Positions 25,906 to 40,221 of a stretch of DNA of 40,490 nt are shown one piece after another. The stretch comes from Burkholderiales bacterium (GTDB lineage: Bacteria > Pseudomonadota > Gammaproteobacteria > Burkholderiales > SG8-39). The DNA is taken from positions 1-40,490 of the forward strand of contig CAXNIK010000002.1 of assembly GCA_964202115.1 (NCBI GenBank), written 5' to 3'. The notes beneath the pieces were generated by a model, which was given only the letters and a program-made list of their open reading frames with translations, did no database searches and was not told the DNA's origin. Numbering within the stretch: position 1 is the first letter of the stretch; each line of letters opens with the position of its first letter. The translations under genes and the position numbers were made by a program.

Positions 25906-26674
25906 TCAAGCCCGATCTTCCCGCGAAGACTTTTGCGCAAAAAACAGCAATCCCCAAAAGCCGCCGTGGTCGGTCTGCTCCAAATGGATACGCCCGAACC
26001 CCGCGGACTGGAAGGCCTGCAGCAGTCGGTTGGCGTCGTAGAGATTAATCTGCATCAGCGGATCGGAAGTGGATCTTCCCTGCAGTAAGTTGAGCAGGAA
26101 GTGCAGTGGGGGAATGCGATGTCGCAGAGAATTCAGCATCTTGCGCGGCAGGGAGCAATCCCTGTGGTAGGTGAAATGAAGGACGGCACCCCCCCGGAGC
26201 CGTTTTGTCCAACAATCTCCTCAAGATATCCATGCCCTTTGCAGCCGGGATGTGCTGGAAGACGATGAAGGAATGGATAAGGTCAAATGGTTTGCAGGTC
26301 TCCATCCATGGATGGTCTGAGCGCTCGAAGCTCACGTCGGCCGTGGGTTGTGCAACCCCGACATTCCTTTTGGCTTCGTCGAGCATAGACGGAGAGATGT
26401 CTACGGCAACGACTTCCCTGCAAATCTTTGCCAGTGGAATGACCAGGCGTCCGACGCCGCAGCCGAAGTCGACAGCGCGCAAGGGGCTGAATGTATCGTC
26501 CAGGGTATTCCTGATGGTGTGCATGACCTGATCGATGTGATCCTCGCTGGACTGGAAGAATTGTTTTCTCGCTTCCTTTGAAAGTTTGCCAGAGCGATAG
26601 TCCTCGCATGTCAGGACAGCGTAGTAGGGATCCTTGCGGCCCCATTCTTCCCACTGGGTGTCAGCTGAAAACAT
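25906..26674 (-). pseudogene. Class I SAM-dependent methyltransferase interrupted by a +1 frameshift in a G7 homopolymer
   Basis: The N-terminal part (ORF 26045..26695, SAM motif AVDFGCGVGRLVIPL, FIVFQHIP) degenerates after ...LLDKTAPGG at the C7/G7 run 26189-26195. The -1 frame continues AVLHFTYHRD...MQINLYDANRLLQAFQSAGFGRIHLEQTDHGGFWGLLFFAQK to a stop at 25906 and includes the 77-aa ORF 25906..26139. Removing one G gives a contiguous MTase of about 256 aa. ATG 26674 follows AAGGAG. Confidence 0.8.
26189..26195 (-). repeat. G7 (C7 on + strand) homopolymeric tract at the frameshift site
   Basis: Read directly: ...ggacggca-ccccccc-ggagc... at 26189-26195. Confidence 0.95.
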
Positions 26675-26809
26675 CGCACGATGCTCCTTGTCCAAACCCC
26701 GCTTTGGGTGCCTTCAAAACATGCCGGCAGACCGGCTCACATGCCGTGCGCCAACTTGTCCAAATCATGCTGACCTGCTGCAGCGGGCCGGGGACTAGGA
26801 ATTCCATCG

Positions 26810-27463
26810 TCATGGTTTGCCGAAGAGCCGGACTATAGTGTGGGGCTGGTCCAGCGCGAGGTCTTGCCCGGCATTCTCAGGAGCGCTGGCGCCTCCGTAC
26901 CCCCAGGTCGCTAGCCCGAACTGCAGCCGGTTGGCGCCTGCTGCCTGGCGATCCTCGTCGCGATCGCCGATATAGGCCGTATGCAGCTGATCCAGCTTGT
27001 GCCCGGACAGGATGCGAGCAATCAGATCGGCCTTCCGCGCCAGGGGTGGCTCGAAGAAATCCAGTGCGTAGATGCCCCGGAAATACGGCGTCCAGCCCAG
27101 GAATTCGATGATCAGCCGGGTCGGCAGCAGACGCTTGTTGGTGGCGATGTAAAGAGAGTGGGATAGGGCCAGCTCGCGCAGCATTTCGGGCACACCGGTA
27201 AACACCCGCGTGAGCTTGTAGCCCTCCGTGTCGTAATGCGCCTTGAAGGCATCCGCCAGGGGACGCAGGACGGCGCTGTCGTTGCAGCCCGCCAGCTGCG
27301 CCAGGGTGTCCATGAGAGGAGGGCCGATCACATCGGAAGCCAGCGGCCGCACAGGGCTTATCCCGCACCGGGCGAAGGCGCCCGCGAAACTGCCGAGGAT
27401 GCCCTCCGAGGAGTCGATCAGCGTGCCGTCCAGGTCGAATATCAGGTGCGAAATGTTCTGCAT
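26810..27463 (-). CDS. HAD-superfamily (subfamily IA, phosphoglycolate-phosphatase-like) hydrolase
   Basis: Motif I LIFDLDGTLIDS, motif II YIATNK, motif IV AYIGDRDEDRQAA. ATG at 27463. Confidence 0.85.
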   Translation of the reverse strand: MQNISHLIFDLDGTLIDSSEGILGSFAGAFARCGISPVRPLASDVIGPPLMDTLAQLAGCNDSAVLRPLADAFKAHYDTEGYKLTRVFTGVPEMLRELALSHSLYIATNKRLLPTRLIIEFLGWTPYFRGIYALDFFEPPLARKADLIARILSGHKLDQLHTAYIGDRDEDRQAAGANRLQFGLATWGYGGASAPENAGQDLALDQPHTIVRLFGKP

Positions 27464-27469
27464 GCCTGT

Positions 27470-28537
27470 CTATACCTGCCCGGAGGCTCTGGCGAAGTCC
27501 GCAGTCTTGCGAATCGATGATTCCAGCGATGTCCAGGCATCCAGACCCAGCTCCGTTCGTGCCCTGCCGATGTCGGGGACGTACCAGTTCCGGGAGAAAT
27601 TACCGACGCGGTTTCCGCTCTCGCCCAGCACCTGCACGGGCTTGCCGGGGCTGACGGTGTCGCGTACCAGATGGGCTAGGTCGAGGATGCTAACGGCTTG
27701 ATCGGAGCCGACGTTGTAGACACGTGCATGCCGCCCATTGACCAGCATAGTCAGCAGCCACACTATGAGGTCCGACATGTACAGAAACGAGCGCATGGGG
27801 GATCCGTCGCCCTTGACGACGATCGTTTCTGCGAACAGGGCGTCGCGGATGAAGTTGCCGATGGCGTAGTGGATGTCGAGCGGCAGATGCGGACCGACAA
27901 AAGAGAAGCAGCGGCCGACGGTGAACTCGAAGCCATGCTTCTGGGCGTAATAGGCGCAAAGAAATTCCGCGCTGCGCTTGGCGATGCCCAGCGCCGAATC
28001 CACCTGGGTCGTGTCCGGCGATCCGGGATACTCCTCGAGTATGCGCTGCATGCCAGACGGCGTCGGGCCGTAGGCCACGCCGGAACTGGTGAAGAAGACC
28101 TTCTTCGCCCCGCATCGGGCCGCGAATTGCAGCGTGCGCTCCGTTCCGTGCAGCAGGGTGTGGAATTTGCGCAGCTGGTCCTCCCCGTGGCTGGTTTCCC
28201 AGGCCGAGGTGGTGGCCATGTGCAATACGTGGGAAAACGACTCGTCTGGAAAGTCGAAACTCATCACGTCTCCACCGATCACGCGGACTGCACCGTCGCC
28301 GAAGAACTGCGGGAACTGCCGGCGGAAATTGTCCGGATTGCGGGTCAGCACCGTCGCCTTCAGGTCCGTTCCCAGGGTGCTGTTCGCGCACAGCATGGCC
28401 TCCAGCAGCCATCGCCCGAAAAGGCCGGTGCCGCCAGTGATGAAGAGGGACTGCCCGCGCAATGCTTTCCACAGAGGGGCGCTGCGGGCTGCGATGGCGG
28501 CGATATCCTCGCTCAGGAGATTCTGATCCGGTTTCAT
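27470..28537 (-). CDS. Extended SDR (NAD-dependent epimerase/dehydratase/reductase family), atypical active site
   Basis: LFITGGTGLFGRWLLEAML (GxxGxxG), FFTSSGVAYG. The position aligned with YxxxK reads LGIAK. ATG 28537 (MKPDQN) is 10 nt downstream of the Nudix stop; the longer ORF reaching 28669 overlaps the Nudix gene. Confidence 0.75.
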   Translation of the reverse strand: MKPDQNLLSEDIAAIAARSAPLWKALRGQSLFITGGTGLFGRWLLEAMLCANSTLGTDLKATVLTRNPDNFRRQFPQFFGDGAVRVIGGDVMSFDFPDESFSHVLHMATTSAWETSHGEDQLRKFHTLLHGTERTLQFAARCGAKKVFFTSSGVAYGPTPSGMQRILEEYPGSPDTTQVDSALGIAKRSAEFLCAYYAQKHGFEFTVGRCFSFVGPHLPLDIHYAIGNFIRDALFAETIVVKGDGSPMRSFLYMSDLIVWLLTMLVNGRHARVYNVGSDQAVSILDLAHLVRDTVSPGKPVQVLGESGNRVGNFSRNWYVPDIGRARTELGLDAWTSLESSIRKTADFARASGQV

Positions 28538-28547
28538 TACTTCTGGA

Positions 28548-29063
28548 TTACGGGCCGTCGATAAGGGAACGATAGGCCTCATGCTGCGGAATGATGTTGG
28601 CGGGGCAACCCTTATGCCACATCCATTGGTTGTTCCTGGGGTTGCCCGGGTCGAAACGGTGCGCTTCATCCGGCATGGAAGTCAGTTTGCAGCGATACAG
28701 CATCGAAATGAAGTGTCCGCGAATGTCCCGGTGTGGCGCCATGACTTCGCGGACGACGACCGGCGTGGCTTCGGCGGTTACGGACGCATCCAGTTCGCTT
28801 TCGGCAACTTTCTGAATGCGAGTGGCTGCATGTTCCTTGAACCGCAGGATGCCGCCTGGAATGTGCCAGCCGGGACCGTAAAATTCATCCGCTCGCCATG
28901 TGAGGAGGGTTTCGCCCGAGGCATTCTTGATCAGCAGGTCTACATTGACCATTGGCGTGAGCTGGCTGATGAAATAGAAGACGTCCTTGGGCAGCGACAG
29001 CCGGGGATTTTCTATCGCTTGCATGACTTCCGCCAACAGGGCCGGCAACGGCGCGCCGGTCAT
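28548..29063 (-). CDS. Nudix hydrolase, GDP-mannose mannosyl hydrolase (WcaH/NudD)-like
   Basis: 171 aa with VDLLIKNASGETLLTWR...GWHIPGGILRFKEHAATRIQKVAESELDA, a modified Nudix box as in GDPMH-type enzymes. ATGA overlap with the upstream gene. Confidence 0.7.
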   Translation of the reverse strand: MTGAPLPALLAEVMQAIENPRLSLPKDVFYFISQLTPMVNVDLLIKNASGETLLTWRADEFYGPGWHIPGGILRFKEHAATRIQKVAESELDASVTAEATPVVVREVMAPHRDIRGHFISMLYRCKLTSMPDEAHRFDPGNPRNNQWMWHKGCPANIIPQHEAYRSLIDGP

Positions 29064-30229
29064 GGCACGGTCTCCAGTCCGTGATCGCGCAAGATTGCCA
29101 CTTTCATCGAGGCGGGATAGCGAGCGCGAATCGTGCGGGCGACTTCGTCCGAATACGCTGCCGCCATGATGATGACGGCATCCACGGGGTCGCTGAGCAA
29201 TGTGTCGGGAGCGACGATGGGCACATGCGAAGCCGGGGTGAATTTGCCTTGCTTGAATAGTGCCGAATCGAGCACGTACTTGACCCTCTTGCCGATGTCG
29301 GCAAGGGCGATGACTGCCAGCGCCTGATGACCTGCGCCCCAGACGGCCACCCGGTTGGCGGGAAAACGGTCGATGAAGCCATTCAGGGCTGTAGCTATCC
29401 TAGTGCGGTAGTCCTCGAAGAAAGTCAGATCCGTCCGCGGCCGCTTGCGTACGATAGCCGAGAGTATGTAGTCATGCCACACGGGCTCGCATTCCAGCAC
29501 CTCGAAACCATTACGCTGCAGGGTGAAGGTCAGGGTGTCGCGAGTGAAATACAGCAGATGATCGGCGATGAACTCCGAGAACAGTCCCATTTTCAGGATC
29601 ATGTCGAAGTTGGGCACTTCGACCATGCCAATGCTTCGGTCAGCTAGATTCCTGCAAATTTCTTGCAGCGTAGCGTTGGGGTCGGGCCAGTGTTCAAGGA
29701 AGTTCAGGCAGACGAAGCCGTCAAAGGGCGCATCCGGCAGTAGTGGGGAATCGGCATCCATGAATGCCCGATGGACCGAGAGTTTCCGGTCGGCGCAGGC
29801 ATCCACCGATGTCTGCCCGAATTCGACGCCGACGGCATCGACAGGCAATTCACCCAACAACTCGAGATACTCTCCGCGCCCACAGCCGACTTCGAGGATT
29901 TTCTTGCCGGACAGGCTGTATTTATCCACCCATTGCTCAAACTGCACGCGGCGAAACTCCCGCATTTCCTCAGAAAAGGCTGAAGCCCTGATGACTTCGC
30001 GGTAATAGGGCACCGGTGGGTTGCTCAACTGCACGAGGCCACAGGCCGAACACTGGTACATCTCGAGATCCGCACCGGCATCAGTTTGAAGAGTTGCCAG
30101 AGTCGGGAATCCTTGGGCGGCAGCGGGCATATTTGAGTATCGTAGCGATGGCTCTTCGAACAATGCCCCGCCACACACCTTACAAGGTTGTCTGTTGCCC
30201 AGCTTTGCCTGACCCGATACCCAACCCAA
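29060..30229 (-). CDS. NDP-hexose C-methyltransferase-like protein (second TylC3-type architecture)
   Basis: N-terminal Zn-ribbon CKVCGG ... YQCSACGLVQLSNPP, SAM motif ILEVGCGRGEYLELL, and a C-terminal Rossmann-like domain (RVAVWGAGHQALAVIAL). The TTG start at 30229 is preceded by AAGGGGGA at about 8 nt, and there is no in-frame ATG upstream of the Zn-ribbon. Confidence 0.7.
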   Translation of the reverse strand: MGWVSGQAKLGNRQPCKVCGGALFEEPSLRYSNMPAAAQGFPTLATLQTDAGADLEMYQCSACGLVQLSNPPVPYYREVIRASAFSEEMREFRRVQFEQWVDKYSLSGKKILEVGCGRGEYLELLGELPVDAVGVEFGQTSVDACADRKLSVHRAFMDADSPLLPDAPFDGFVCLNFLEHWPDPNATLQEICRNLADRSIGMVEVPNFDMILKMGLFSEFIADHLLYFTRDTLTFTLQRNGFEVLECEPVWHDYILSAIVRKRPRTDLTFFEDYRTRIATALNGFIDRFPANRVAVWGAGHQALAVIALADIGKRVKYVLDSALFKQGKFTPASHVPIVAPDTLLSDPVDAVIIMAAAYSDEVARTIRARYPASMKVAILRDHGLETVP

Positions 30230-30309
30230 CTCATTTCCCCCTTGTATTTAATTTAACCTGCATCCACCTGATTCACTGCCTCCTCCCGGCGAGCCCAAGG
30301 ACAACTTAT

Positions 30310-31113
30310 CTATCCAAAGACTGTTATGCCGCCAGCCCACTGCTCAGATACCTGAGTGGTGTCCTTAGTGAGCATATTGGTCATGCACCAGAACTCCATA
30401 TGGGGGCCATATGCCTTGAGCAGTAGCACAAGGCGCGGATCTGCATGCACATAGGCCGACAAGCACACAATCGGCGTGTAGTGCTCATCGCTGATGAGCA
30501 GGTCGGGTGATCCGATCAGTGCTGCGCAAATATCCATGCCTCCGCTAAGACAGACATTGACGCCGTCAAGCTCGGGCAATGAAGTCATTTGCTCCCGTTG
30601 TGACCTTACATCGTACTCCTGCAGGGCTTGCGGAAAATACCAACCGACAACTGCAGCGCTCTGGCTTGCGTCTATAAACCGTTGGTAGCGGGATGCCTTG
30701 TCCAGCGTGATATGGCCTGGCAATTCGGAGTTGCTTTGCAGCACAGCCTTGAAATGGGCTTCCGGGTAGCGAGCGGTAAATGAACCCTGCAGATTTGACA
30801 GCAAAGTATTTTCAAGATTCGATCCAAGATCAACCTCGCTGCCAACACGCTGAAAGACGAAAGGGATGTGCACGCCTTTCAGCAGATTTGCATACGCTGG
30901 ACTGGCATTGAGTTTGTCAAGCAGGGCTTCGGCCCTGGATTTGAAATCAGCGGCCGTCAAACTGGCAGGGGAAACGTTGTACTGCTTGCAACGAACGAGA
31001 ATCTGCTGGTAGTCGAGTTTTGGCTGCGTCAATCTGTAGTAGTTGCTGGGCGTCTTCCCAAACAGACGCATGCCGTCGCCTGGAATACGGCGACCGATTT
31101 CATTGAAATACAT
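30310..31113 (-). CDS. Hypothetical protein, no recognisable family
   Basis: 267-aa ORF (ATG 31113 preceded by GGAG; GTG at 31116), 12-15 nt downstream of the radical SAM gene. No TM helices and no signature motif that I recognise. Clearly lower GC than its neighbours. Confidence 0.7.
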   Translation of the reverse strand: MYFNEIGRRIPGDGMRLFGKTPSNYYRLTQPKLDYQQILVRCKQYNVSPASLTAADFKSRAEALLDKLNASPAYANLLKGVHIPFVFQRVGSEVDLGSNLENTLLSNLQGSFTARYPEAHFKAVLQSNSELPGHITLDKASRYQRFIDASQSAAVVGWYFPQALQEYDVRSQREQMTSLPELDGVNVCLSGGMDICAALIGSPDLLISDEHYTPIVCLSAYVHADPRLVLLLKAYGPHMEFWCMTNMLTKDTTQVSEQWAGGITVFG

Positions 31114-31128
31114 CACCCTTTTCTCCGA

Positions 31129-32262
31129 TCAGCCATCAATAGCGGGGGCACGACCAAAACCGTGTTCATAGGGAACCGGTAGAAGCGGACTCACCTTCGA
31201 ATAATCGGCGACTGAACTATTATGGAAGTGGATGAAGTCTTTGTGTTCCCCAATGATGCATTCGTCGCGATATGGCCCCAGCCAGCTGTTCTTCATGCCA
31301 CGCTCAAGAATCACTGACAGCGGCTCCTTCGTGACATTCCCGATCGACAGATCCATATAGGGGCATGGAACAATCTCGCCATCGTGGTTGACCGTGTTGA
31401 TTCCCTTGACTGTGATGCAGCGCCCGGGTTGCCCATAGGAAGGGCTCATATGAGTGAATATGTTGTATTTATTTTCCAGGTACTTGAGGTGATCCACGTC
31501 CTTCTTGGTACACACCCAGGTATCTTGTTCCCGAGCCGTTCCAACTGGTTTGGCGAGCGTCACATACAAAGGTATCTCTTCAACCTTGCAATACTCGCAA
31601 AGGCTCAGGAATTCGTCAGAATATACGCGATCCTTGATGACGCAAGTCGAGATCAAGAGTTCAAGATTTGCATTCTTGGCTGCATCCAAAGCCCGCAATA
31701 CCCGCTTGTAGGAGCCCTTCTTGCCGCGAAACGAGTCATGCTCTTCTTCAATCATGCTATCAAGGGAGATTTGTGCCTTGTAACCGCCCAGACCCGCAAA
31801 CCACTTGGCCTTCTGGTCATCAAATGTCCAGCCATTGGTGTCCAGGATAATGAGGTGCTTCATCGGGTCAAGGGCCTCGATCAGCTTGTCCAGGCTCTTG
31901 TCCAGAAGCGCCTCGCCTCCGGTCAGCACAAAACGGAAGATTCCATATTCATCGGCTTGGCGTGATAACTCCCGGTACTCCTCCAAACCCATTTGCGGTC
32001 GGGGATCAATGGAACCGATGCGTTTTTTCAGATCCCGAGTCATGTAAGGTTCTTCGCAGCAATGTACACAATGAAAATTACACAAAGAACGGTTGATCTT
32101 CAGACGCAGAATCGGGCTGATTTGGCCGTCGAGCATGCCCTTGAAGTACTGCTGAATCTTTTCGTGAACGCGGGGACGCCTTTGACTCTGATCCTTGCGT
32201 TTGTTCTTCTCAGTCAAGGACAGGGCTTCCTGTTCTGCCAATATTTGAAGAGTGTTCGACAT
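31129..32262 (-). CDS. Radical SAM enzyme with C-terminal twitch/SPASM-like Cys region
   Basis: CNFHCVHC (CX3CX2C, residues 61-68), VLTGGEALL (GGE motif), and a C-terminal GRCITVKGINTVNHDGEIVPCPYMDLSIGNV. ATG 32262 is preceded by AGGAG at 7 nt. Confidence 0.85.
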   Translation of the reverse strand: MSNTLQILAEQEALSLTEKNKRKDQSQRRPRVHEKIQQYFKGMLDGQISPILRLKINRSLCNFHCVHCCEEPYMTRDLKKRIGSIDPRPQMGLEEYRELSRQADEYGIFRFVLTGGEALLDKSLDKLIEALDPMKHLIILDTNGWTFDDQKAKWFAGLGGYKAQISLDSMIEEEHDSFRGKKGSYKRVLRALDAAKNANLELLISTCVIKDRVYSDEFLSLCEYCKVEEIPLYVTLAKPVGTAREQDTWVCTKKDVDHLKYLENKYNIFTHMSPSYGQPGRCITVKGINTVNHDGEIVPCPYMDLSIGNVTKEPLSVILERGMKNSWLGPYRDECIIGEHKDFIHFHNSSVADYSKVSPLLPVPYEHGFGRAPAIDG

Positions 32263-32403
32263 TTCGGTCTCCTAGGTTTAAGTGTTAAATTGGCGGGACG
32301 CCACGATTAGACGCCCGCAGCAATTATGGCCAAATTCGTTGACAGCATCACGCCAATGCGATGGTCGCAATAATATCCTTACAATTATTTTCATTGTAGG
32401 CGG

Positions 32404-34224
32404 CTAATGTTTTCTAGTGCTTATTGAGGCATCTAGCAACGGGATGAGCATCTCCTTCTCCAAGATGCTCAGATCGAGCAACGGGGTCATGTCCTCCAGT
32501 GGCATGGATATCATGCTGCCATCGGGTTGCGGCATTGCGGCCGCCTTTGGCGAGAGGACTTCGTTTTCGACCAGACGCACATCTATGATGCAGGGCCGGG
32601 ACATTTCCATGACAGCATTAAGGTCTTTTGCCAAGCTTGCAGGTTTGTCGATCCGGCGGAACGCAAGCCCATAGGCTGTGGCAATGAGTTCCAAGTCGGG
32701 CAGTAACAGGCCGGCTTCGGGGCCGGTTCCTACGTAGCGCCCCTCAAAATAATTGCGCTGTGTGTTGCGGATCGAAGCATATCCACCGTTATTCATCACG
32801 ATCAGGCAAATGGGCAGGTTGAAGGCGCGAAGCGTGGCCAGTTCCTGGATATTGAGTTGCAGGCTGCCATCGCTTTCCACGGCGATCATCGGCTTTCGGT
32901 CATTTGCAAAACATGCGCCAATGGCTGCAGGCAATCCATATCCCATTGCGCCCAGACCCGATGTGAGAAACACTCTTTGCCCGGGCTTATTGCGAAATAC
33001 GGTATAGAACGCCTCCACCGCCAGACCGGAACTGCCTGTTGTGATGACCGCGCCTTCCGGAAAGGCATCCGACAAGGCGTCCATCAGCTGGTAATGCGAG
33101 ATCTTTCCCGCGGTTGGAAACGGCTGACCGTCGTTGACCGGATACCGCCGCTTCCAGTCCAGACAACGTGTCCGCCAAGGCTCCCAGTCAGCGTGGGACG
33201 GTGTCTCGTGCTGGTTGACTGCTTCAATGAACGCCATTGCGCTGCTGGCCACGGAAACGGCAATTTCCATGTCCAGTTTGTCGATTTCGTTCTGATCTAC
33301 GTCAACGATGATTTTTCTGGCTGCCCGTGCAAGGCCGCGCGGATTGTAGGCGGTGATGATGTTGTCCAAGCGGCTGCCGATGCTGATCAGGAGATCGCAA
33401 TTCTGCACGGCAAAATTCGGGGCCCGCAATGCAACCACGCCGGGACGGCCGATATTTAAATGATGGCTGTAGGGCAGAAGATCCAGCGCATTCCAGGTGG
33501 TGACGACAGGGATGCCGAGTTTTTCAACCCAAGCTCGAAATACTTCTGCAGCACCGGCTAGACGAATACCATGGCCGGCAAGCACCAAAGGGCGTTCCGC
33601 CTTGGCGATGAGCAACAGGATGTCCTTGATTGTGGCCACAGGAATTCCGTCTGCTTGCTGGGCAAGTTTCCGGGTCCACGGACGCAGGGCTGTCGGATCG
33701 ACTGGGGCGCCCTGAACATCCAACGGTACATCGATCCACACCGGGCCCGCACGGCCTTCGCGTGCCACATGGTAGGCCTCCTCCATGACTGCACGGATAT
33801 CTTCAGGCTGTTCCACCGTCACGGCGTATTTCGTAATACCCTGGACCATCCTGACAATATCGACTTCCTGTACGCCTTTCTGGCGCAGGGGGGCGTCACG
33901 CAGCATGTCTGCACGCTTGACCTGCCCTGTAAGGACCATGAGTGGCACGGATTCGATCCATGCTCCGGCAACTCCGGTGATGACGTTGGTGGCTCCCGGA
34001 CCGGTGGTCACCAATGCCACGCCGATATTCTCGTTGATTCGAGCATAGGCTTCGGCGGAAATGCCGACGGCTTGCTCATGAAGGCATGCCACGGTTTCCA
34101 GCCCGGGGCATTTGCCCACCGCATCGACCAGGTGCATATTGCCGCCGCCGGGCAGCAGGAAGACATGCCTGACCCCAATGCCGGCCACGAAATCAGCGAT
34201 AAAGTCTGCTACACGATAGTGCAT
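32404..34224 (-). CDS. Thiamine-diphosphate-dependent carboligase of the acetolactate-synthase/YerE type
   Basis: 606 aa. N-terminal Pyr domain: HVFLLPGGGNMHLVDA...HEQAVGISAEAYAR...VTTGPGATNVITGVAGAWIESVPLMVLTGQV. C-terminal ThDP motif: ESDGSLQLNIQELATLRAFNLPICLIVMNNGGYASI. It lies two genes downstream of rfbH, the position YerE takes behind the ddh genes in the yersiniose pathway. Confidence 0.8.
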   Translation of the reverse strand: MHYRVADFIADFVAGIGVRHVFLLPGGGNMHLVDAVGKCPGLETVACLHEQAVGISAEAYARINENIGVALVTTGPGATNVITGVAGAWIESVPLMVLTGQVKRADMLRDAPLRQKGVQEVDIVRMVQGITKYAVTVEQPEDIRAVMEEAYHVAREGRAGPVWIDVPLDVQGAPVDPTALRPWTRKLAQQADGIPVATIKDILLLIAKAERPLVLAGHGIRLAGAAEVFRAWVEKLGIPVVTTWNALDLLPYSHHLNIGRPGVVALRAPNFAVQNCDLLISIGSRLDNIITAYNPRGLARAARKIIVDVDQNEIDKLDMEIAVSVASSAMAFIEAVNQHETPSHADWEPWRTRCLDWKRRYPVNDGQPFPTAGKISHYQLMDALSDAFPEGAVITTGSSGLAVEAFYTVFRNKPGQRVFLTSGLGAMGYGLPAAIGACFANDRKPMIAVESDGSLQLNIQELATLRAFNLPICLIVMNNGGYASIRNTQRNYFEGRYVGTGPEAGLLLPDLELIATAYGLAFRRIDKPASLAKDLNAVMEMSRPCIIDVRLVENEVLSPKAAAMPQPDGSMISMPLEDMTPLLDLSILEKEMLIPLLDASISTRKH

Positions 34225-34233
34225 TGACGCGCC

Positions 34234-35739
34234 TTATCTCATCCAGTAGGTCAGCAGGGTTTTACGCTGCTTGTTAGCCATGATGGCCGGGTCTGTGTAG
34301 AACGAGTCATCCCTGAAATGCGTGGTCGATATTTCCTCAATGACCGCACCGGCCTGGCTCCTAAATGCATGTCTTGTGCCCGGTTCGATGGTAATGACAT
34401 CTCCCGGTTTGCATTGTCGTGGTTGACCGTCCAGCTCCAGGGTAATTTCCCCATACAGGACGTGGAATGTTTCCTCTTTCTGCTTGTGATACTGCTCCGG
34501 ATGCGATTGTCCCGGCAGGGTCACAAGCAGCTTCTTGCAGTAGTCGCGATTCACGACTGTGAGCATGGTGAGGCCTACGTCATCAAACCGGCCCAATCCG
34601 TAGTGGTGAGAGATGTCCAGTTCGGCACTGCCCGGAATCACAACCTGACTTTCTTTTAGAAAGGCCTTTACCCTCTTGACGATATCCCAGATTTTTTCGC
34701 GAGTATCGCTTTGCACCGAATTGGCCGGTGCGATGGCGCCGTCTGCGGCGATGGGTGCGGTGGCGGTGAATTGAGTGTATTTCGACCAGTCGTTGGCGGT
34801 GTATTGGTCGTCCTGGGGAGGGAACGCGAAATACACGTCTTCGCGCCGAACGATTTCGCCCTTTGAGATGGGGCGCCTGGCGAACACACCCCGACGCAGG
34901 GAGCGCAGGCTGGCTATTTCCTCAGGGTTCTCAGGACGCCGGACCTGCCCTTCACCGCAGACAGTCAGGGCGTATTCCGCCGCTGACAACCATGCATCCA
35001 CCTGTCCGGGAGAGGCCGAATAGGCATTGATCGGATATTTGTCTGTCGGCAGGCCGACGTGTTTCTCGAATATGGTCGCGCCCTTGGCAATGGCCATCTT
35101 GACCATGTCTGTGTTAGCCGGGTTCTCGTGGGTGGAAAAACCAATTCTTACACCCGGGTAACGCCGCTGCAGGAAGTCAAGTTGCGACAGGTGCATGCGC
35201 TCATCCGGGGTGGGGTATTCGCCGACGCAATGAAGAATGGCGAAATCCTTGGCGCGGTGCTGGAAGAAACTGATGACGCGATCAATGTCTTCCAGCTTTG
35301 CGCCGGCTGTCGAAGCGATGATCGGCCGGTCGGTCCCAACGATGCGCTCGAGCAGTGGCCAGTCGTTGAAGGAACAGCTGGCAACCTTGATGATGTCCAG
35401 TTTTTGCGATTCGATTGTGTCCACTGATGCCTCATCGAACGGGGTGGACATGGTGAGGAATCCCTGGGTACGAATTTCAGCTACAAGCCTGTCAAAATCC
35501 GCACGTGACAAGCGGGTTTCCGAAAAGCGCTTGATGTACTTGATGTCGTCCCGCCCCTGCATGGACGGGTGGATGAAAGTATCCAAGTCGCGGTATTGGA
35601 GCTTGAAAGCCATCGGAAAGCCGTGCTTTCTGCGGATTTCGCCAAAGGCACGAATCACGGCAAAGCCGTGTTCCATGTCCCCCATGTGGTTGTTGGCCAT
35701 TTCTAGAACAATGAGCGGGGTCGGAATTTTGGAAGTCAT
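34234..35739 (-). CDS. NeuB-fold (sialic-acid-synthase-like, PEP-condensing) enzyme fused to SAF and C-terminal cupin domains
   Basis: 501 aa from ATG 35739 (GAGG at 6 nt). NeuB block: PLIVLEMANNHMGD...IIKVASCSFNDWPLLERI...PIIASTAGA...ILHCVGEYPTP...IGFSTHE. SAF-like segment: RRGVFARRPISKGEIVRREDV. Cupin motifs: GQSHPEQYHKQKEETFHVLYGE and GDVITIEPGTRHAF. Confidence 0.8.
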   Translation of the reverse strand: MTSKIPTPLIVLEMANNHMGDMEHGFAVIRAFGEIRRKHGFPMAFKLQYRDLDTFIHPSMQGRDDIKYIKRFSETRLSRADFDRLVAEIRTQGFLTMSTPFDEASVDTIESQKLDIIKVASCSFNDWPLLERIVGTDRPIIASTAGAKLEDIDRVISFFQHRAKDFAILHCVGEYPTPDERMHLSQLDFLQRRYPGVRIGFSTHENPANTDMVKMAIAKGATIFEKHVGLPTDKYPINAYSASPGQVDAWLSAAEYALTVCGEGQVRRPENPEEIASLRSLRRGVFARRPISKGEIVRREDVYFAFPPQDDQYTANDWSKYTQFTATAPIAADGAIAPANSVQSDTREKIWDIVKRVKAFLKESQVVIPGSAELDISHHYGLGRFDDVGLTMLTVVNRDYCKKLLVTLPGQSHPEQYHKQKEETFHVLYGEITLELDGQPRQCKPGDVITIEPGTRHAFRSQAGAVIEEISTTHFRDDSFYTDPAIMANKQRKTLLTYWMR

Positions 35740-35834
35740 CGGATACCTCACTGCGAGAGTGGTTGAGGACGGTGATAAAGGTCGGTCATCTGCAAATTGC
35801 GTCGATTGGGAAACAGGCTTATGTGGGGTAGTGA

Positions 35835-37151
35835 TCAGAAATTTAGGCCAAGGAAGATCGAGACCTTCCTTGCGACAAAGTCAAGCATTGGTTCCGTAAG
35901 GCCGGGATACACACCGATCCAGAACGTGTTGTTCATGATGATGTCCGTGTTGGCGAGATGCCCTGAAATGCGGAAATTGCGGCCTATCATATAGGGCTGG
36001 CGCGCCAGATTACCGGCAAAAAGTAGCCTGGTGCCTACTTTTTCCTGATCCAGGTACGTGAGCAGGTCCACCCGGCTGACCGGCGCGTTGTCTTTTAACG
36101 TGATCGGGAAACCGAACCATGAAGGATCGGAATCAGCAGTGGCCTGCGGCAAGATCAGAAATTCTTCGCAGTCAGCCAGCCGGTTTTTCAAGAACGCGAA
36201 ATTATTCTTGCGGGCCTGCACAAAATGATCGAGTCGATCCATCTGAGCCAGGGCGCAGGCAGCCTGCACGTCACCGATCTTGAGGTTGTAGCCCAAGTGG
36301 CTGTACGTGTACTTGTGGTCATAACCTTCTGGCAGTTGGCCGAGTTTCCAGCAGAAGCGCTTGTTGCAGGTATTGTCCTTGCCCGGGGCGCAGTAGCAGT
36401 CCCGACCCCAGTCACGGAAGGACTCGGCAATGCGCTTTAGGTCGTCGTTGTTGGTGAAGACAGCTCCACCTTCACCCATTGTGATGTGATGAGCCGGATA
36501 AAAACTCAAGGTGCCGATGTCCCCGAAAGTGCCCACGCGTTGACCGTTGTAGGTGGACCCCAGGGCGTCGCAGCAATCCTCTACCAGCCAGAGATTGTAT
36601 TTTCTGGCGATACGGGTGACTTCAGCGAGGTTGTACGGATTTCCCAGAGTGTGCGCCAGCATGATGGCCTTCGTCTTGGGACCGATGGCCGCTTCGAGTT
36701 GCGTTACGTCGATATTGTAGGTGGGGATATGGACGTCAACGAATACTGGAATCGCGCCGAACTGCAGTATGGGATTCACCGTTGTGGGGAATCCGGCGGC
36801 TACGCCGATGACTTCATCTCCCGGCTTGATTGCCCGGTCGCCGAGCATGGGGCTGGTCAGCGCAGAGAAAGCGACCAGATTTGCCGATGACCCCGAATTG
36901 ACGGTAATGACGTGTTTGACGCCAAGATACTTGGCCAGGCGCTGCTCGAAAGCACTGTTGAAGCGGCCAGTTGTCAGCCAGCCGTCCAGAGAGGCTTCGA
37001 CCATGTTCCTGAGTTCACCGGCTCCGATTACCTTTCCCGACGGGGGGACCACTGTTGTGCCTGGTGTGAAGGGCAACGGAGAAAAAGCGAGCGCCGCGTA
37101 CTCATCGACGAGCTTGGCAATCTGTTGCCGGATCTGTACGGTTTTTTCCAT
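35835..37151 (-). CDS. rfbH: CDP-4-dehydro-6-deoxyglucose 3-dehydrase (E1; PMP- and [2Fe-2S]-dependent)
   Basis: 438 aa with [44 protein letters not shown] has His where aminotransferases have the Schiff-base Lys. The Cys pattern C194-X57-C252-X1-C254-X7-C262 matches the E1 iron-sulfur motif. Confidence 0.9.
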
Positions 37152-37158
37152 GAGAATC

Positions 37159-38232
37159 TTAGTGGATTGTGGCTTGGTATTGGGAGATCTGCTTCAGAGT
37201 GACAGTCTTCATGTCAGCTTTGTCGAGAAAAGCCTTGTGCCATGCCACGATGTTGTCGAGAGTTTCCTTCAATTGCCATTTTGGATTCCAACCCAGCCGT
37301 GCCTTCGCCTTGGAGCAATCAAGCTTGAGGTAGTGGGCTTCATGGGGGTGCGGATTTGGATCGAGTTTCCAAGAAGCCCCCGTGCTCCAGGATTTTGTCA
37401 GACATTCGACAATCCATTGCACCGGCTTGGCATCATCGTCACCTGCGCCGAAATTCCACGCTTCGGCGTAGGTAATGCCATTGTCGTAAAGCTTTTCAGC
37501 AAGCGTGAGGTACCCGCCCAGTGGCTCTAGTACATGCTGCCATGGGCGAATGGCTTGAGGGTTCCGGATATTGACTGGCTGGCCGGATTCAATGGCACGC
37601 AGAATGTCGGGTATCAGGCGATCTACCGCCCAATCACCGCCGCCAATGACGTTGCCGGCCCGCACTGTCGCTAGGGCAACACCATGCTCCTTGTGTCTGG
37701 CAGGGTTGAAAAAGGAATTGCGATAGGCAGCGGTCACGAGTTCCGCGCATCCCTTGCTGTTGCTATAAGGATCGTAACCCCCCATGGGATCATTTTCCCG
37801 GTAGCCCCACAGCCATTCCTTGTTTTCATAACACTTGTCGCTGGTGACATTGATTACGGCTCGCACGCTGCCGGTCTTGCGTACGCCTTCGAGCATATGC
37901 ACAGTGCCCATCACGTTTGTTGCGTAGGTTTCTACAGGAGCCGCATACGAATGGCGTACCAGCGGCTGAGCAGCCATGTGGATCACAATGTCCGGCTTTG
38001 CATCGTGCATGATACTTGCCAATTTTTCGGCATCGCGGATGTCTGCAATGACGGATCGCATACCTTTTCCTACATCCGCCACTGCAAATAGGCTGGGACT
38101 TGTGGGGGGCGGCAATGCATATCCGGTAAGGTCTGCTCCAAGCTGCTGCAACCAGAGGGACAGCCAACTGCCCTTGAAGCCGGTATGGCCTGTCATGAAG
38201 ACTCGTCTGTCACGCCAGAATGAGAGATTCAT
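37159..38232 (-). CDS. rfbG: CDP-glucose 4,6-dehydratase
   Basis: [44 protein letters not shown] 38232 forms an ATGA overlap with the rfbF stop; the TTG at 38247 is less likely. Confidence 0.92.
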
Positions 38233-39005
38233 CCCCAAACTTTCCAAGGCGCCTTGCCGCTGGCCCAGAGTTCTTCAAGCAACGTCTTGTCGCGCAGGGT
38301 GTCCATGGGTTGCCAGAACCCTTTGTGAGGAAAGGCTTTGAGCTGGCTTACCTCTGCCAGAGTTTCTAGGGGTTCGCGCTCCCAAGGTGTCTGGTCGCCT
38401 GCAATCAGGTCCATGACCTTAGGTGAAAGCACAAAAAAGCCCCCATTTATCAGGCCGCCGTCACCCCTGGGCTTTTCCTTAAACGAAGTAACGCGACTGT
38501 CCGGATGGATATCCAGGGCGCCGAAACGCCCGGGGGGGTAAGTGGCGGTAATTGTCGCCTGCAGGCCGTGTGCCAGGTGGAATCTGATCAGTTCTGTTAC
38601 GTTGACATCGCTCAAACCATCTCCGTAAGTGAAGCAGAATGCCCCTTCATCCCTCACATAGGAGGTGACTCGTTTGAGGCGCCCACCTGTATTGGTACTT
38701 TCGCCCGTATCTACCAGCGTGACACGCCAGGGTTCGGCATAGCGCTGATGGACTTCCATTTTGTTGTGCTGGACGTCGAAGGTGACATCCGACATGTGCA
38801 GGAAGTAGTTGGCAAAGTATTCCTTGACAACATACCCCTTGTATCCGCAACAGATGATGAAATCGTTGATGCCATGGTGGGAGTAGATCTTCATGATGTG
38901 CCATAGGATCGGCTTGCCACCGATCTCAACCATGGGCTTGGGTTTGAGATTGGTTTCTTCGGAGATGCGGGTTCCAAGACCGCCAGCGAGAATTACAGCC
39001 TTCAT
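38229..39005 (-). CDS. rfbF: Glucose-1-phosphate cytidylyltransferase
   Basis: 258 aa with [86 protein letters not shown]. Confidence 0.95.
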
Positions 39006-39123: not shown

Positions 39124-40221
39124 TCACTCGTGATGGTCCATAAATTTGTAGCCGTGGTGTTTGATGAGCTCGTCACGTTTTGCTGTCTTGAAATCTTGGC
39201 GTACCATTTCGGCAACCAGCTCTTCAAATGTGGTTTTCGGAGTCCAGCCGAGTTTTTCCTTGGCTTTAGTTGGATCGCCTAGCAGTGATTCGACTTCAGT
39301 CGGGCGGAAATAGCGAGGGTCAACGGCAACAATGCAATTGCCGTTGGCATCAAATCCCTTTTCCTCCTTGCCTTCACCTTTCCATGCGATTTCCTTCATA
39401 CCCAGTTCTCTAGCCGCAGCGTCGACGAAGTCTCGTACACTGTATTGCAGGCCAGTCGCGATGACATAGTCTTCCGGCCTGCCCTGCTGCAGCATTAGCC
39501 ACTGCATTTCGACGTAGTCACGGGCGTGCCCCCAGTCGCGGCGCGCGGAAAGATTGCCAAGGTACAGGCAGTCCTGCAGCCCAAGCTTGATTCTGGCAAG
39601 TGCGCGCGTGATCTTTCGCGTGACAAAGGTTTCGCCGCGAATGGGGCTTTCGTGATTGAATAAAATGCCATTGCAGGCGTAGATTCCATAGGCCTCACGG
39701 TAGTTAACCGTGATCCAGTATGCGTAAAGTTTGGCAACTGCGTATGGGCTGCGTGGATAGAAGGGTGTGGTTTCCTTTTGCGGAGTTTCCTGCACCAGGC
39801 CATAGAGTTCCGAAGTGCTGGCCTGGTAGAAGCGAGTTTTCTTGTCCAGGCCAAGCAGGCGAATAGCCTCAAGGATGCGTAACGCGCCCAATGCGTCGGA
39901 ATTAGCGGTGTATTCGGGTTCTTCAAAGCTGACCGCCACATGGGACTGAGCTGCTAGATTATAAATTTCATCCGGTTGGGTTTGCTGGACTATGCGGATG
40001 AGGCTGGAACTGTCCGTCATGTCTCCATAGTGTAGAAATAATCGGGCCCCGGCTTCGTGAGGATCTTGGTACAGGTGATCGATACGATCGGTATTGAAGA
40101 GTGACGCTCGACGGCGAATTCCATGCACCACGTAGCCTTTACTAAGTAGTAATTCCGCTAGGTAAGCACCATCCTGGCCGGTGATGCCAGTGATGAGAGC
40201 AACTTTGCTTAATTTGGTCAT
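39124..40221 (-). CDS. gmd: GDP-mannose 4,6-dehydratase, long (enterobacterial-type) form
   Basis: 365 aa with [99 protein letters not shown]. Confidence 0.95.

Follow-up and report, generated by a model that had tools for sequence, protein, structure and literature searches.

Do the genes for CDP-3,6-dideoxyhexose synthesis, followed on the same strand by a NeuB-SAF-cupin fusion, a ThDP enzyme, a radical SAM enzyme and a C-methyltransferase, encode a single pathway, and if so, for which sugar? The window analyzed here, 40,490 nucleotides of DNA from a Burkholderiales bacterium, is a large polysaccharide cluster of mixed content and also holds a separate GDP-sugar module. All eleven genes listed in a first-pass annotation of this DNA are present on the minus strand, at the positions it gave or a few bases from them, and in families that agree with its assignments; the hairpin and gmd described next are on the minus strand too. 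Intergenic gaps from rfbF to the HAD phosphatase gene run from -4 to 141 nt. Just downstream of the latter, a terminator-like hairpin (26723..26736), weak and found by consensus scan only, may mark the end of the operon. The adjacent upstream neighbor, gmd (GDP-mannose 4,6-dehydratase, 39124..40221; TIGR01472, 592 bits), lies outside the conserved module, with a homologue in only one of 32 related loci. These 32 are the related loci longer than 12 kb; a contig scan of a genome collection gave 41 loci.

Judged by their sequences, RfbF and RfbG, with an RfbH of authentic E1 type, supply CDP-4-keto-3,6-dideoxy-D-glucose. RfbF/DdhA (glucose-1-phosphate cytidylyltransferase, 38229..39005) matches Pfam NTP_transferase and, at 468 bits, the TIGR02623 equivalog (cutoff 300), and RfbG/DdhB (CDP-glucose 4,6-dehydratase, 37159..38232) matches TIGR02622 at 517 bits against 278. 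Direct reading of the sequence bears out the ATGA coupling of the two genes, in which the rfbG start ATG at 38232 overlaps the rfbF stop codon; the 345-aa RfbG predicted by the metagenome gene caller is a truncated version. RfbH/DdhC (E1, a PMP- and [2Fe-2S]-dependent CDP-6-deoxy-4-keto-glucose 3-dehydrase, 35835..37151) matches PRK15407 at 750 bits against 423. It carries the E1 signature C194-X57-C252-X-C254-X7-C262, with His replacing the Schiff-base Lys of aminotransferases. An E3 reductase gene was found next to E1 in none of the loci examined, the window included, so electrons would have to be delivered by a housekeeping reductase, as they are to SpnQ.

The 606-aa enzyme encoded at 32404..34224 has three TPP domains and is a predicted YerE-like ThDP-dependent carboligase. 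Its best PDB match is JanthE (8rph; 416 bits, 36% identity over 592 aligned residues), followed at 286 bits by 5ahk, which we take to be PpYerE, and by acetohydroxyacid synthases at no more than 254 bits. The cofactor motif is non-canonical, reading SDG where JanthE has CDG and the canonical form is GDG, and SDG recurs in 26 of 37 ThDP homologues linked to NeuB-cupin genes. JanthE, from Janthinobacterium sp. HH01 (PDB 8RPH/8RPI/8RPJ), is itself YerE-like and has a C-terminal extension in common with the window enzyme. It falls outside the NeuB-cupin-linked clade, since all members of that clade are only about 30-37% identical to it. The physiological substrates of JanthE and its gene-cluster role are unreported (PMC12188165).

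Carboligases of this type have known roles in branched sugars. Steitz et al. 2022 (PMC9306805) linked erwiniose, caryophyllose and gastriose to DdhABC acting together with a YerE-like ThDP carboligase, a reductase and an alpha-keto acid that an aldolase supplies. The first-pass annotation had known of no assigned genes for such sugars, a statement outdated by the same study, which assigned ErwE/F/I/J in Pectobacterium atrosepticum, MMAR_2331/2332 (in MMAR_2331-2333) in Mycobacterium marinum and MyGE/MygI/MygF in M. gastri. YerE, ErwE, MMAR_2332 and MyGE transfer C2-C8 alpha-keto-acid donors onto CDP-4-keto-3,6-dideoxyglucose; where the donor is a gamma-hydroxy-alpha-keto acid, a clustered aldolase supplies it, and a reductase acts next (PMC9306805; PMC12247030). 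ErwE rejects pyruvate and needs the keto acid of its clustered enzyme (PMC9306805). A 2024 in-silico survey, cited in PMC12247030, covered more than 200 YerE-like clusters.

In the window, the gene directly between rfbH and the ThDP gene encodes a fusion of NeuB (Pfam, 134 bits), SAF and Cupin_2 domains (34234..35739). It scores far below the equivalog cutoffs for NeuB (133 against 400) and PseI (120 against 340). Its residues 6-339 match PDB 3g8r, the nearest structure and an uncharacterised one, at 441 bits, and the cupin part (residues 358-489) matches the D-lyxose isomerase 2y0o with E 3e-13. G(F/Y)STHE and FEKH, the metal motifs of the NeuB part, are kept in nearly all homologues, and relatives at 70-85% identity fill more than 100 clusters. 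From these matches we infer a 3-deoxy-2-ulosonate synthase that uses PEP and is joined to an aldose/ketose isomerase resembling D-lyxose isomerase. NeuB-type synthases, by established NeuB/KdsA chemistry, give a 4-hydroxy-3-deoxy-2-keto acid, the pattern that the aldolase-made donors also have.

Two downstream genes could complete such a pathway. The extended SDR of nucleotide-sugar type (27470..28537; PF01370, 103 bits), present in 21 of the 32 related loci, is a candidate branch-ketone reductase in the role of YerF or ErwF; among solved structures it is nearest to UDP-glucuronate decarboxylase (90 bits) and MoeE5, and it resembles epimerases too. The HAD-IA protein (26810..27463; PF13419, 73 bits), with its DxDGT motif as FDLDGT at residues 9-14, is a candidate ulosonate-phosphate or sugar-phosphate phosphatase. 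A HAD of this type occurs in 10 of the 32 loci, and ten others have a protein of about 199 aa with HAD-type motifs between the NeuB-cupin and ThDP genes, assigned from motifs only (hhalign probability 2.5%). Counting the latter by its motifs, most complete versions of the module appear to have a phosphatase.

The arrangement is not due to chance, as the same gene set was found again in dozens of unrelated lineages, and the module is widespread. NeuB-cupin and ThDP genes occur together in 30 of the 32 loci, which span Proteobacteria, Bacteroidales, Planctomycetia, Actinobacteria and Prochlorococcus. The distance from NeuB-cupin stop to ThDP start is 9 nt in the window and 1 nt in Pseudomonas, and the genes abut or overlap in Sulfuriferula nivalis. 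An rfbH gene is nearby in 19 of 32 loci; of the 41 genome-collection loci, 22 have rfbFGH immediately upstream of NeuB-cupin, as do the marine and JGI loci. The full 12-gene set was found again in marine and JGI contigs. The view of the first-pass annotation that these genes form one module with rfbFGH is upheld by these recurrences, which do not show the genes for NeuB-cupin, the radical SAM enzyme and the 267-aa protein moving independently of rfbFGH. In about ten loci whose upstream flank is adequate, among them the complete Sulfuriferula nivalis genome, NeuB-cupin and ThDP genes occur with no rfbFGH within 10 kb; there the acceptor could be a different keto-sugar, or rfbFGH could lie elsewhere in the genome. 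Aldolases of the HpcH or BphI type are not a recurrent family in the related loci. A DHQ-synthase-like cyclase is encoded in two of them (L012 and L013).

On balance, we read the rfbF-to-HAD operon as a modified ThDP-dependent acyl-branched-sugar pathway, with donor, acceptor and product deduced from the enzyme families. Relative to the published scheme it would make one substitution, NeuB-SAF-cupin, probably with the phosphatase, for the pyruvate aldolase. The cupin domain, resembling D-lyxose/mannose isomerases, would convert a ketose to an aldose or aldose phosphate, which the NeuB domain would condense with PEP to a 3-deoxy-2-ulosonic acid; the HAD phosphatase would strip the phosphate before or after condensation, following the logic of NANS/NANP and KdsD/KdsA/KdsC. 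The ulosonic acid would skip CMP activation and instead be decarboxylated by the YerE-like enzyme, which would place the acyl-anion equivalent on the ketone at C4 of the CDP-sugar and so form a tertiary alcohol, and the SDR would then reduce the branch C1' ketone. The product is most likely a nucleotide-activated 3,6-dideoxy sugar with a long carbon branch, predicted as a CDP-activated 3,6-dideoxy-4-C-(polyhydroxyalkyl)hexose with a 2'-deoxy branch. This branch would have seven carbons (a C13 sugar) if the NeuB substrate is a pentose and eight (a C14 sugar) if it is a hexose. A glycosyltransferase of the surrounding WbaP/Wzx/Wzy cluster would transfer the sugar into a heavily methylated surface polysaccharide. 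The first-pass interpretation stands in part, namely in proposing a single module and a sugar more elaborate than yersiniose, of which the caryophyllose/erwiniose type is the best reading.

That annotation had also offered two rare sugars made side by side, which would here be a CDP-3,6-dideoxyhexose (or pyruvate-derived yersiniose) and, apart from it, a NeuB-derived ulosonic acid served by tailoring enzymes of its own. NeuB-family enzymes do normally make glycosyl donors themselves, about ten loci have NeuB-cupin and ThDP genes with no nearby rfbFGH, and the mixed cluster in the window already has another GDP-sugar module. However, no CMP-ulosonate synthetase of the NeuA, KdsB or PseF type is found among the window ORFs, so that the ulosonic acid could not be activated, and the NeuB-cupin and ThDP genes are translationally coupled and almost always together. 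The linked ThDP clade is also distinct from the pyruvate-using YerE, by its score to PpYerE and its SDG motif, and the precedent ErwE does not accept pyruvate (PMC9306805). We consider two separate sugars unlikely.

The ThDP enzyme might instead be a plain decarboxylase of the NeuB product, comparable to sulfopyruvate or phosphonopyruvate decarboxylase, yielding a 2-deoxy-aldose one carbon shorter for processing by the SDR, radical SAM enzyme and methyltransferase, while rfbFGH serve an unrelated dideoxyhexose. ThDP enzymes of the decarboxylase superfamily are often simple decarboxylases, and in some genomes the module has no neighboring rfbFGH. Ketone activity of MygE was undetected in vitro, and heterologous RhopE and SpirE have so far shown no ketone acceptance (PMC12247030). 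We find this improbable, given that there is no kinase or nucleotidyltransferase to activate a free sugar, that the nearest solved relatives are ketone-accepting carboligases and that synteny with rfbFGH is frequent. No RfbJ/RfbS-type CDP-4-keto-3,6-dideoxyhexose 4-reductase was recognized either, although the lone SDR could in principle serve.

The remaining four genes, for the C-methyltransferase, the Nudix-like protein, the radical SAM enzyme and the 267-aa protein, would tailor the product under the branched-sugar reading. They are an optional block, and the radical SAM gene is missing from a good third of modules, the Pseudomonas version included. The NeuB-cupin and ThDP proteins are each about 71% identical to those of the window with or without the block (L002 versus L003), and the block therefore probably tailors the product and does not supply the core substrate. 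The divergent TcaB9/TylC3-type sugar C-methyltransferase (29060..30229; PF13489 65 bits, PF08484 48 bits, PF08421 weak) has full-length but weak PDB matches to 5t64, TcaB9 and TylC3 (E about 1e-13), a four-Cys N-terminus (CKVC...CSAC) and only 23% identity to a second C-methyltransferase in the window. It probably methylates carbon beside a ketone, and our guess for the site is ring C3 or C5 if methylation precedes branching, or branch C2' if it follows. The Nudix-fold protein (28548..29063) resembles GDP-mannose mannosyl hydrolase (PF00293, a marginal 23 bits; PRK15434, E 1e-6; Gmm structures, E 1e-4), has a degenerate Nudix box (G71-x5-E77-x7-K85-V...E88-x-E90, canonically RE..EE) and accompanies the radical SAM gene in 16 of 16 loci.

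The radical SAM enzyme (31129..32262; PF04055 57 bits, PF13186 23 bits) has a twitch/partial SPASM domain, a CX3CX2C motif at residues 61-68 and further Cys at 282, 300 and 335. Relatives at 84-95% identity fill more than 120 clusters, and its matches to MoaA, AhbD, NirJ, SkfB and BlsE are all weak (BlsE, E 1e-3). The 267-aa protein (30310..31113) proved as unrecognizable as first noted, with no match in Pfam, NCBIfam, PDB sequences or Foldseek. Its AF2 model is confident (pLDDT 88, pTM 0.90), and a Foldseek search of the PDB with it returned no hit better than E 0.4 or TM 0.2. The family comprises 511 representative clusters. Its gene occurs with, and always adjacent to, the radical SAM gene in 10 of 10 loci, and in some organisms the domain is fused to the radical SAM enzyme, as in P0409, where it is C-terminal to radical SAM/SPASM; the two proteins are one unit. 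This unit would act at an unactivated carbon. Our best guess, held with low confidence, is an AprD4-like diol dehydration, which, followed by keto-reduction, would leave the sugar with a terminal deoxy group like that of caryophyllose; epimerization is the alternative.

The count of four C-C bond-forming classes in the first-pass annotation was overstated, because the radical SAM enzyme belongs to an optional block and no part in C-C bond formation has been shown or can be inferred for it. Among twitch radical SAM enzymes with sugar substrates, the more usual reactions are dehydrogenation, dehydration, epimerization and decarboxylation (BtrN, AprD4, BlsE). That the enzyme forms an extra C-C bond, as do TunB, PolH and NikJ, so that four C-C enzymes build a higher-carbon or carbocyclic skeleton, is improbable: its twitch/SPASM type, its best family match to the C-C-forming MoaA (well below cutoff), its dedicated, sometimes fused partner without a matching solved fold, the cyclase in L012 and L013 and the natural carbocyclic relatives caryose and bradyrhizose speak for it, but it has no specific likeness to any C-C-forming sugar radical SAM enzyme, twitch enzymes on sugars more often do other chemistry, and modules lacking its gene build the carbon skeleton without it.

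We compare the window with four groups of known systems. In AprD4/AprD3, BtrN and BlsE, too, a radical SAM enzyme is encoded within a sugar-modification cluster, close to a reductase, and acts at an unactivated sugar carbon, as the window enzyme would. The similarity of the window enzyme to them is weak or absent, and its 267-aa partner has no counterpart there. With NeuB/PseI/LegI and their NeuC/PseG partners the window shares the NeuB TIM barrel with SAF and the conserved metal motifs, and its predicted isomerase-synthase-phosphatase trio is similar to KdsD/KdsA/KdsC and to eukaryotic NANS with NANP. Unlike these nonulosonic acid and KDO systems, its synthase is fused to a D-lyxose-isomerase-like cupin and paired with a ThDP gene, and it has no CMP-activating enzyme. 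CDP-yersiniose synthesis in Yersinia pseudotuberculosis (DdhA-D, YerE, YerF) would have in common the CDP-3,6-dideoxy-4-ketohexose acceptor, ThDP-dependent C4 branching and ketoreduction. YerE uses pyruvate to add a C2 branch, so that pathway needs no donor-forming enzyme; Yersinia also encodes an E3 reductase (DdhD/AscD), which the window does not, and the window carboligase scores higher with JanthE (416 bits) than with PpYerE (286 bits). Compared with erwiniose, caryophyllose and gastriose synthesis, the window has NeuB-SAF-cupin and a candidate phosphatase in place of an HpcH/BphI-type pyruvate aldolase, a ThDP enzyme of a separate clade with the SDG motif, an optional block and no encoded E3 reductase. 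It shares with these pathways the DdhABC-type genes and a YerE-like ThDP enzyme, and probably also a functionalised gamma-hydroxy-alpha-keto acid donor from a clustered enzyme, a clustered NAD(P)H reductase and a surface glycan as destination.

Pfam and NCBIfam assignments for the window ORFs bore out in full, in both coordinates and families, the gene run listed in the first-pass annotation. All of these genes lie on the minus strand. A gmd gene (39124-40221) is the upstream neighbor of rfbF, which encodes glucose-1-phosphate cytidylyltransferase (38229-39005; TIGR02623, 468 bits against a cutoff of 300), followed by rfbG for CDP-glucose 4,6-dehydratase (37159-38232; TIGR02622, 517 bits, cutoff 278) and rfbH for the E1 3-dehydrase (35835-37151; PRK15407, 750 bits). 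The rfbF stop codon and the rfbG start codon overlap as ATGA, confirming the coupling described earlier. Downstream lie genes for a fusion of NeuB, SAF and Cupin_2 domains recognized by Pfam (34234-35739; hereafter NeuB-cupin), a 606-aa ThDP enzyme with three domains (32404-34224; PF02776, PF00205, PF02775), a radical SAM/SPASM protein identified by a CX3CX2C motif and PF13186 (31129-32262), and a 267-aa protein that matches no family (30310-31113). The run continues with a TcaB9/TylC3-like C-methyltransferase (29060-30229; PF08484, PF13489), a Nudix-like protein with a marginal Pfam NUDIX match (28548-29063), an extended SDR (27470-28537) and a HAD phosphatase (26810-27463), the last two assigned by Pfam. 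Gaps between module genes range from -4 to 141 nt, and a terminator-like hairpin lies 3' of the HAD gene. Third-position GC content is mosaic between 26000 and 40490: 0.57-0.68 from gmd to the 267-aa gene and in a methyltransferase gene at 26045-26674, 0.68-0.70 in the C-methyltransferase and Nudix-like genes in between, and 0.74-0.81 in the SDR, HAD, downstream glycosyltransferase and Wzx genes. This mosaicism suggests that the biosynthetic module was put together from parts of differing origin.

The window lies within a 54.9-kb metagenome contig (ENA ERZ27280310, k141_1682020), and by gene content it is, as a whole, a polysaccharide locus of the Wzx/Wzy type. It encodes an initiating transferase of the WbaP type (1536-3686; 432 bits), proteins resembling Wzz, the flippase Wzx and Wzy/ligase, glycosyltransferases of families GT2, GT4 and GT9, and numerous methyltransferases. 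Separate from the genes above, 10656-14955 holds another sugar module, with gmd2 (10656-11648), an SDR resembling Rmd/Fcl (11632-12543), a GT4 (12540-13697) and a C-methyltransferase of canonical TylC3-like type (13690-14955); this methyltransferase is only 23% identical to the enzyme at 29060-30229. The likely product of this second module is a GDP-6-deoxy-3-C-methylhexose destined for the same polysaccharide.

RfbF and RfbG both score above their NCBIfam cutoffs, and RfbH carries a [2Fe-2S] motif of exact E1 type (C194-X57-C252-X-C254-X7-C262), with His replacing the Schiff-base, PLP-binding Lys of aminotransferases (AHH at residues 220-222). These sequence features identify an authentic RfbF/G/H set. 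An E3 reductase (DdhD/AscD/RfbI, with Fer2 and FAD/NAD domains) was absent among the scanned window ORFs, was not among the families recurring in related loci, and was found in none of the related loci examined. An authentic RfbH with no clustered E3 implies that the whole cluster family must depend on an electron donor encoded outside the cluster.

The best solved relative of the ThDP enzyme is JanthE (8RPH; 416 bits, 36% identity over 592 aligned residues), followed by 5AHK (286 bits), which we take to be the YerE-like enzyme PpYerE. Acetohydroxyacid synthase structures rank behind both, at 254 bits or less. The canonical ThDP-binding motif is GDG; the window enzyme has SDG...NN (SDG at residues 451-453), which lines up with the unusual CDG of JanthE, and SDG is found in 26 of 37 ThDP genes linked to NeuB-cupin. 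From these comparisons, the enzyme belongs to the YerE-like carboligase family; its predicted acceptor is a ketone, CDP-4-keto-3,6-dideoxyglucose. JanthE is the closest solved relative, and its physiological substrates are unreported (PMC12188165). It was rejected as a member of this cluster type and is regarded as an outgroup because it is about equally distant, at a uniform identity of about 30-37%, from every NeuB-cupin-linked ThDP enzyme.

Residues 6-339 of NeuB-cupin match the structural-genomics entry 3g8r at 441 bits, as against 59-89 bits for structures of true NeuB, SpsE and PseI, and the protein falls below the equivalog cutoffs for nonulosonate synthases (TIGR03569, 133 vs 400 bits; TIGR03586, 120 vs 340 bits). 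Its metal-binding motifs, G(F/Y)STHE and FEKH, are conserved, and residues 358-489 resemble D-lyxose isomerase 2y0o (E 3e-13). The 120 best-scoring NeuB-cupin clusters are 69-100% identical to the window protein (all but four at 70-85%), with sources including Sulfuricella, Sulfuriferula, Methylumidiphilus, Chlorobiaceae and Pseudomonas. Sequence comparison defines a large family in which a NeuB-type synthase is fused to a lyxose-isomerase-like cupin. Among the window ORFs there is no NeuA/KdsB-type cytidylyltransferase, nor any CMP-NulO synthetase or UDP/GDP-sugar hydrolase/epimerase (NeuA/NeuC, PseF/PseG); the one gene there that comes near such a role encodes the degenerate Nudix-like protein. 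Pyruvate aldolase domains of the HpcH/HpaI or BphI type are likewise absent from the window, where NeuB-cupin takes that logical position, and no aldolase family recurs across related loci; a weak HpcH-like ORF adjoins a second ThDP gene in one of them (L012). The extended SDR (27470-28537) stands as the candidate for the YerF/ErwF reductase role. In 10 loci, including L022, L027, L028 and L033-L037, a protein of about 199 aa is encoded between NeuB-cupin and ThDP and replaces the window-type HAD. Its invariant motifs (W-D-x-D-D-V-L, T, K/R, DD) are arranged in the sequence usual for HAD phosphatases; neither Pfam nor a profile search of the PDB nor hhalign with the HAD family of the window gave a significant match, so its assignment as a HAD phosphatase, which only the motif pattern fits, is tentative.

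A scan of one genome per species yielded 41 related loci, which span Beta-, Gamma- and Deltaproteobacteria, Magnetococcales, Bacteroidales, Planctomycetia, Actinobacteria, Nitrospiraceae and Marinimicrobia; one related locus comes from a Prochlorococcus single-cell genome. Searches with the window proteins (tblastn) of the 32 loci longer than 12 kb detected ThDP in 30, usually directly after NeuB-cupin, the SDR in 21, radical SAM in 20, rfbH in 19 and the C-methyltransferase in 18. The Nudix-like gene (16/32) and the 267-aa gene (10/32) always occur with radical SAM; the window-type HAD is present in 10 loci and gmd in one. Linkage to rfbFGH was seen in the window, in 22 of the 41 genome-collection loci, in a Pseudomonas locus (L003) and in four loci from marine TARA and JGI contigs (L047-L050). 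About ten loci with enough upstream flank, including the complete Sulfuriferula nivalis genome AP021881, have no rfbFGH within 10 kb. The first-pass annotation had asked whether the NeuB-cupin, radical SAM and 267-aa genes travel independently of rfbFGH; co-occurrence across the related loci argues that they do not. As judged from gene neighborhoods, the coupling of rfbFGH, ThDP and NeuB-cupin is tight and widespread.

In the Pseudomonas locus (GCA_013043895.1, JABETN010000002.1, 30-21533) the module lies immediately downstream of flgH-flgI-flgJ-flgK-flgL and comprises rfbFGH, NeuB-cupin, ThDP, two methyltransferases, GT2, HAD, SDR and a 1431-aa RgpF/GT2 protein. It retains NeuB-cupin and ThDP and lacks the Nudix-like, radical SAM and window-type C-methyltransferase genes. 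Because it adjoins flgH-flgL, its position suggests a flagellin glycosylation island in which the sugar decorates flagellin. Some loci carry further genes. Two from uncultured betaproteobacteria, L012 (1230-6691) and L013, have five genes between rfbH and NeuB-cupin, encoding a weak HpcH/HpaI-like aldolase, an SDR, an epimerase-family SDR, a second YerE-like ThDP enzyme and a 3-dehydroquinate-synthase-like sugar-phosphate cyclase; such loci might produce two distinct branched sugars or one that is carbocyclic. L002 (18888-20774) and 12 other loci encode a B12-binding radical SAM protein of about 607 aa with C-terminal TPR repeats. This protein, which the window lacks, probably methylates carbon of the same sugar in a cobalamin-dependent manner. 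The marine TARA locus L047 (GCA_001049175.1, 45-20456) holds its 12-gene module outside any glycosyltransferase-rich locus, with an aldo/keto reductase gene separating ThDP from the C-methyltransferase. Its neighbors encode an AMP-binding enzyme, a multicopper oxidase and a protein resembling acyl carriers, next to the housekeeping genes miaA, DAHP synthase and ispH.

The reading we favor, by a modest margin over doubt, is that NeuB-cupin makes an ulosonic acid that the ThDP carboligase uses as donor onto CDP-4-keto-3,6-dideoxyglucose. The cupin domain and the phosphatase would provide an aldose, which the NeuB domain would join to PEP to give a 3-deoxy-2-ulosonic acid. This acid, for which the window encodes no CMP-activating enzyme, would be decarboxylated by the ThDP enzyme and added at C4, and the SDR would reduce the branch ketone. 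The expected branch pattern is 1'-hydroxy-2'-deoxy-3'-hydroxy, with a chain length set by the NeuB substrate. A more elaborate product, of a sugar class so far undescribed, is improbable: a C13-C15 monosaccharide, in which an 8- or 9-carbon ulosonic acid is grafted by the ThDP enzyme onto C4 of a CDP-3,6-dideoxyhexose and the radical SAM enzyme and its partner add a new radical transformation, for example closure of a caryose- or bradyrhizose-like carbocycle or a deoxygenation of a new kind. A core route in which gmd, the Nudix-like protein, the SDR and the C-methyltransferase supply a free 6-deoxy-C-methylhexose as NeuB substrate, by NeuC/PseG logic, was rejected, as gmd occurs in one of 32 loci and the Pseudomonas module has no Nudix-like, methyltransferase or radical SAM genes of this kind, yet its NeuB-cupin and ThDP stay at about 71% identity to those of the window.

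The C-methyltransferase, Nudix-like, radical SAM and 267-aa genes form an optional block, which probably tailors the product, since NeuB-cupin and ThDP are equally similar to the window proteins (about 71% identity) in modules with and without it. The radical SAM enzyme has C61, C65 and C68 (CX3CX2C) at residues 61-68, a PF13186 match of 23.1 bits (cutoff 21.5) over profile positions 1-44 of 67, and a twitch-like set of invariant cysteines (Cys282, Cys300, Cys335). It weakly resembles MoaA, AhbD, NirJ, SkfB and BlsE; no NCBIfam family scores above its cutoff, the best matches being MoaA, AhbD and NirJ. TunB and PolH are not among the best 25 of its 41 NCBIfam matches, nor among its PDB-sequence matches. 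Its AF2 model (pLDDT 55) came from too shallow an alignment. The enzyme is unusually conserved, at 84-95% identity across more than 120 sequence clusters. L047-L050 carry the same 12-gene cluster with a radical SAM enzyme 84-86% identical to that of the window, and their NeuB-cupin, ThDP and C-methyltransferase proteins are 47-70% identical. The radical SAM and 267-aa genes (30310-32262) also coincide with a local GC dip (0.50-0.53 vs 0.55-0.64). Conservation and GC dip together point either to extreme constraint or to a cassette swapped between clusters. A second subtype, only 37-49% identical, occurs in Sulfuriferula-type loci.

The 267-aa protein has no match in Pfam, NCBIfam or PDB sequences. 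Its AF2 model is confident (pLDDT 88, pTM 0.90), and Foldseek against the PDB returned nothing better than E 0.4 or TM 0.2. A profile search recovered 511 representative clusters, fusion proteins among them; some organisms carry the domain C-terminal to a radical SAM/SPASM enzyme, as in the homologue P0409, and P0386 and P0420 are related proteins. Because of the fusion in P0409, we consider the radical SAM enzyme and the 267-aa protein to be one functional unit. Invariant Cys188, Cys217, Cys243, His120, His223 and His238 hint at a metal site. Identification of the 267-aa protein as the missing E3 reductase or a flavoprotein was rejected: its nitroreductase-like Foldseek matches (E at least 0.4, TM below 0.2) are meaningless, and the gene tracks radical SAM, not rfbH.

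The C-methyltransferase scores 48.5 bits to PF08484 (cutoff 23.5) and 65 bits to PF13489; PF08421 reaches 19 bits, below its cutoff of 31, and the four Cys of that Zn-binding N-terminal domain are present. It aligns over its full length with TcaB9 and TylC3 (E about 1e-13), as a divergent member of that type on sequence grounds. The Nudix-like protein has a marginal Pfam score (23.2 vs 21.1). The canonical box GX5EX7REUXEEXGU was not found in it, the sequence present being G71-x5-E77-x7-K85-V-A-E-S-E; its nearest relative, GDP-mannose mannosyl hydrolase, likewise has a modified Nudix box. With low confidence, the TcaB9-like enzyme could C-methylate a carbon next to a ketone, and the radical SAM/267-aa unit could carry out an AprD4-like dehydration or an epimerization. 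The families behind the earlier proposal of four C-C bond-forming enzyme classes are present; the proposal itself is not established, and an extra C-C bond formed by the radical SAM enzyme finds neither support nor contradiction here.

The first-pass finding is real, and the proposal of a branched sugar was right in its general direction; the kind of pathway was already known, and the statement that caryophyllose- and erwiniose-type sugars have no assigned genes is outdated. In the unifying scheme of Steitz et al. (2022; PMC9306805), proposed and partly demonstrated, DdhABC(D) makes CDP-4-keto-3,6-dideoxyglucose, and the gamma-hydroxy-alpha-keto acid comes from a pyruvate aldolase encoded in the cluster (ErwI, MMAR_2331 or MygI). 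A ThDP enzyme of the YerE-like kind (ErwE, MMAR_2332 or MyGE) decarboxylates this acid and adds it at C4, and the reductase ErwF completes the branch; pyruvate is not accepted by ErwE. According to a review (PMC12247030), ropiose and aurantose also belong to such sugars; the review cites an in-silico survey from 2024 that covers more than 200 YerE-like clusters. In the literature apart from that survey, we found no link of yersiniose or YerE with NeuB or radical SAM enzymes. Three features appear to be new in the accessible literature: a NeuB-family synthase that would make the donor for a YerE-type carboligase, how widely the module is distributed, and the radical SAM unit whose partner has no solved-fold match.

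Dideoxy sugars with a long-chain branch at C4, among them caryophyllose, erwiniose and gastriose, serve as rare antigenic determinants, and the only clusters linked to their biosynthesis up to now are of the pyruvate-aldolase type and come from a few species. The cluster type in the window is far more widespread, across many bacterial phyla and abundant marine lineages, with NeuB-cupin homologues at 70-85% identity in more than 100 clusters, marine TARA contigs included. If the proposed route is correct, an enzyme of the sialic-acid synthase family would take on a new role, supplying a carboligase rather than a CMP-transferase; ThDP carboligases would gain sugar-acid donors of interest to biocatalysis; and environmental bacteria, as well as some flagella, would be predicted to carry a whole class of high-carbon sugars not seen before. 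The radical SAM unit with its partner protein would form a defined, testable enzyme system. Cultured carriers exist, namely the Pseudomonas strain GCA_013043895.1, Azonexus hydrophilus ZS02 and Sulfuriferula nivalis, and therefore the prediction can be tested directly; a PLSDB plasmid search for an annotated cultured carrier gave no match. Compared with the acyl-branched sugar scheme, in which a pyruvate aldolase makes the donor, NeuB-cupin stands in that place here, and the branch pattern predicted for the final sugar is the same as in caryophyllose and gastriose.
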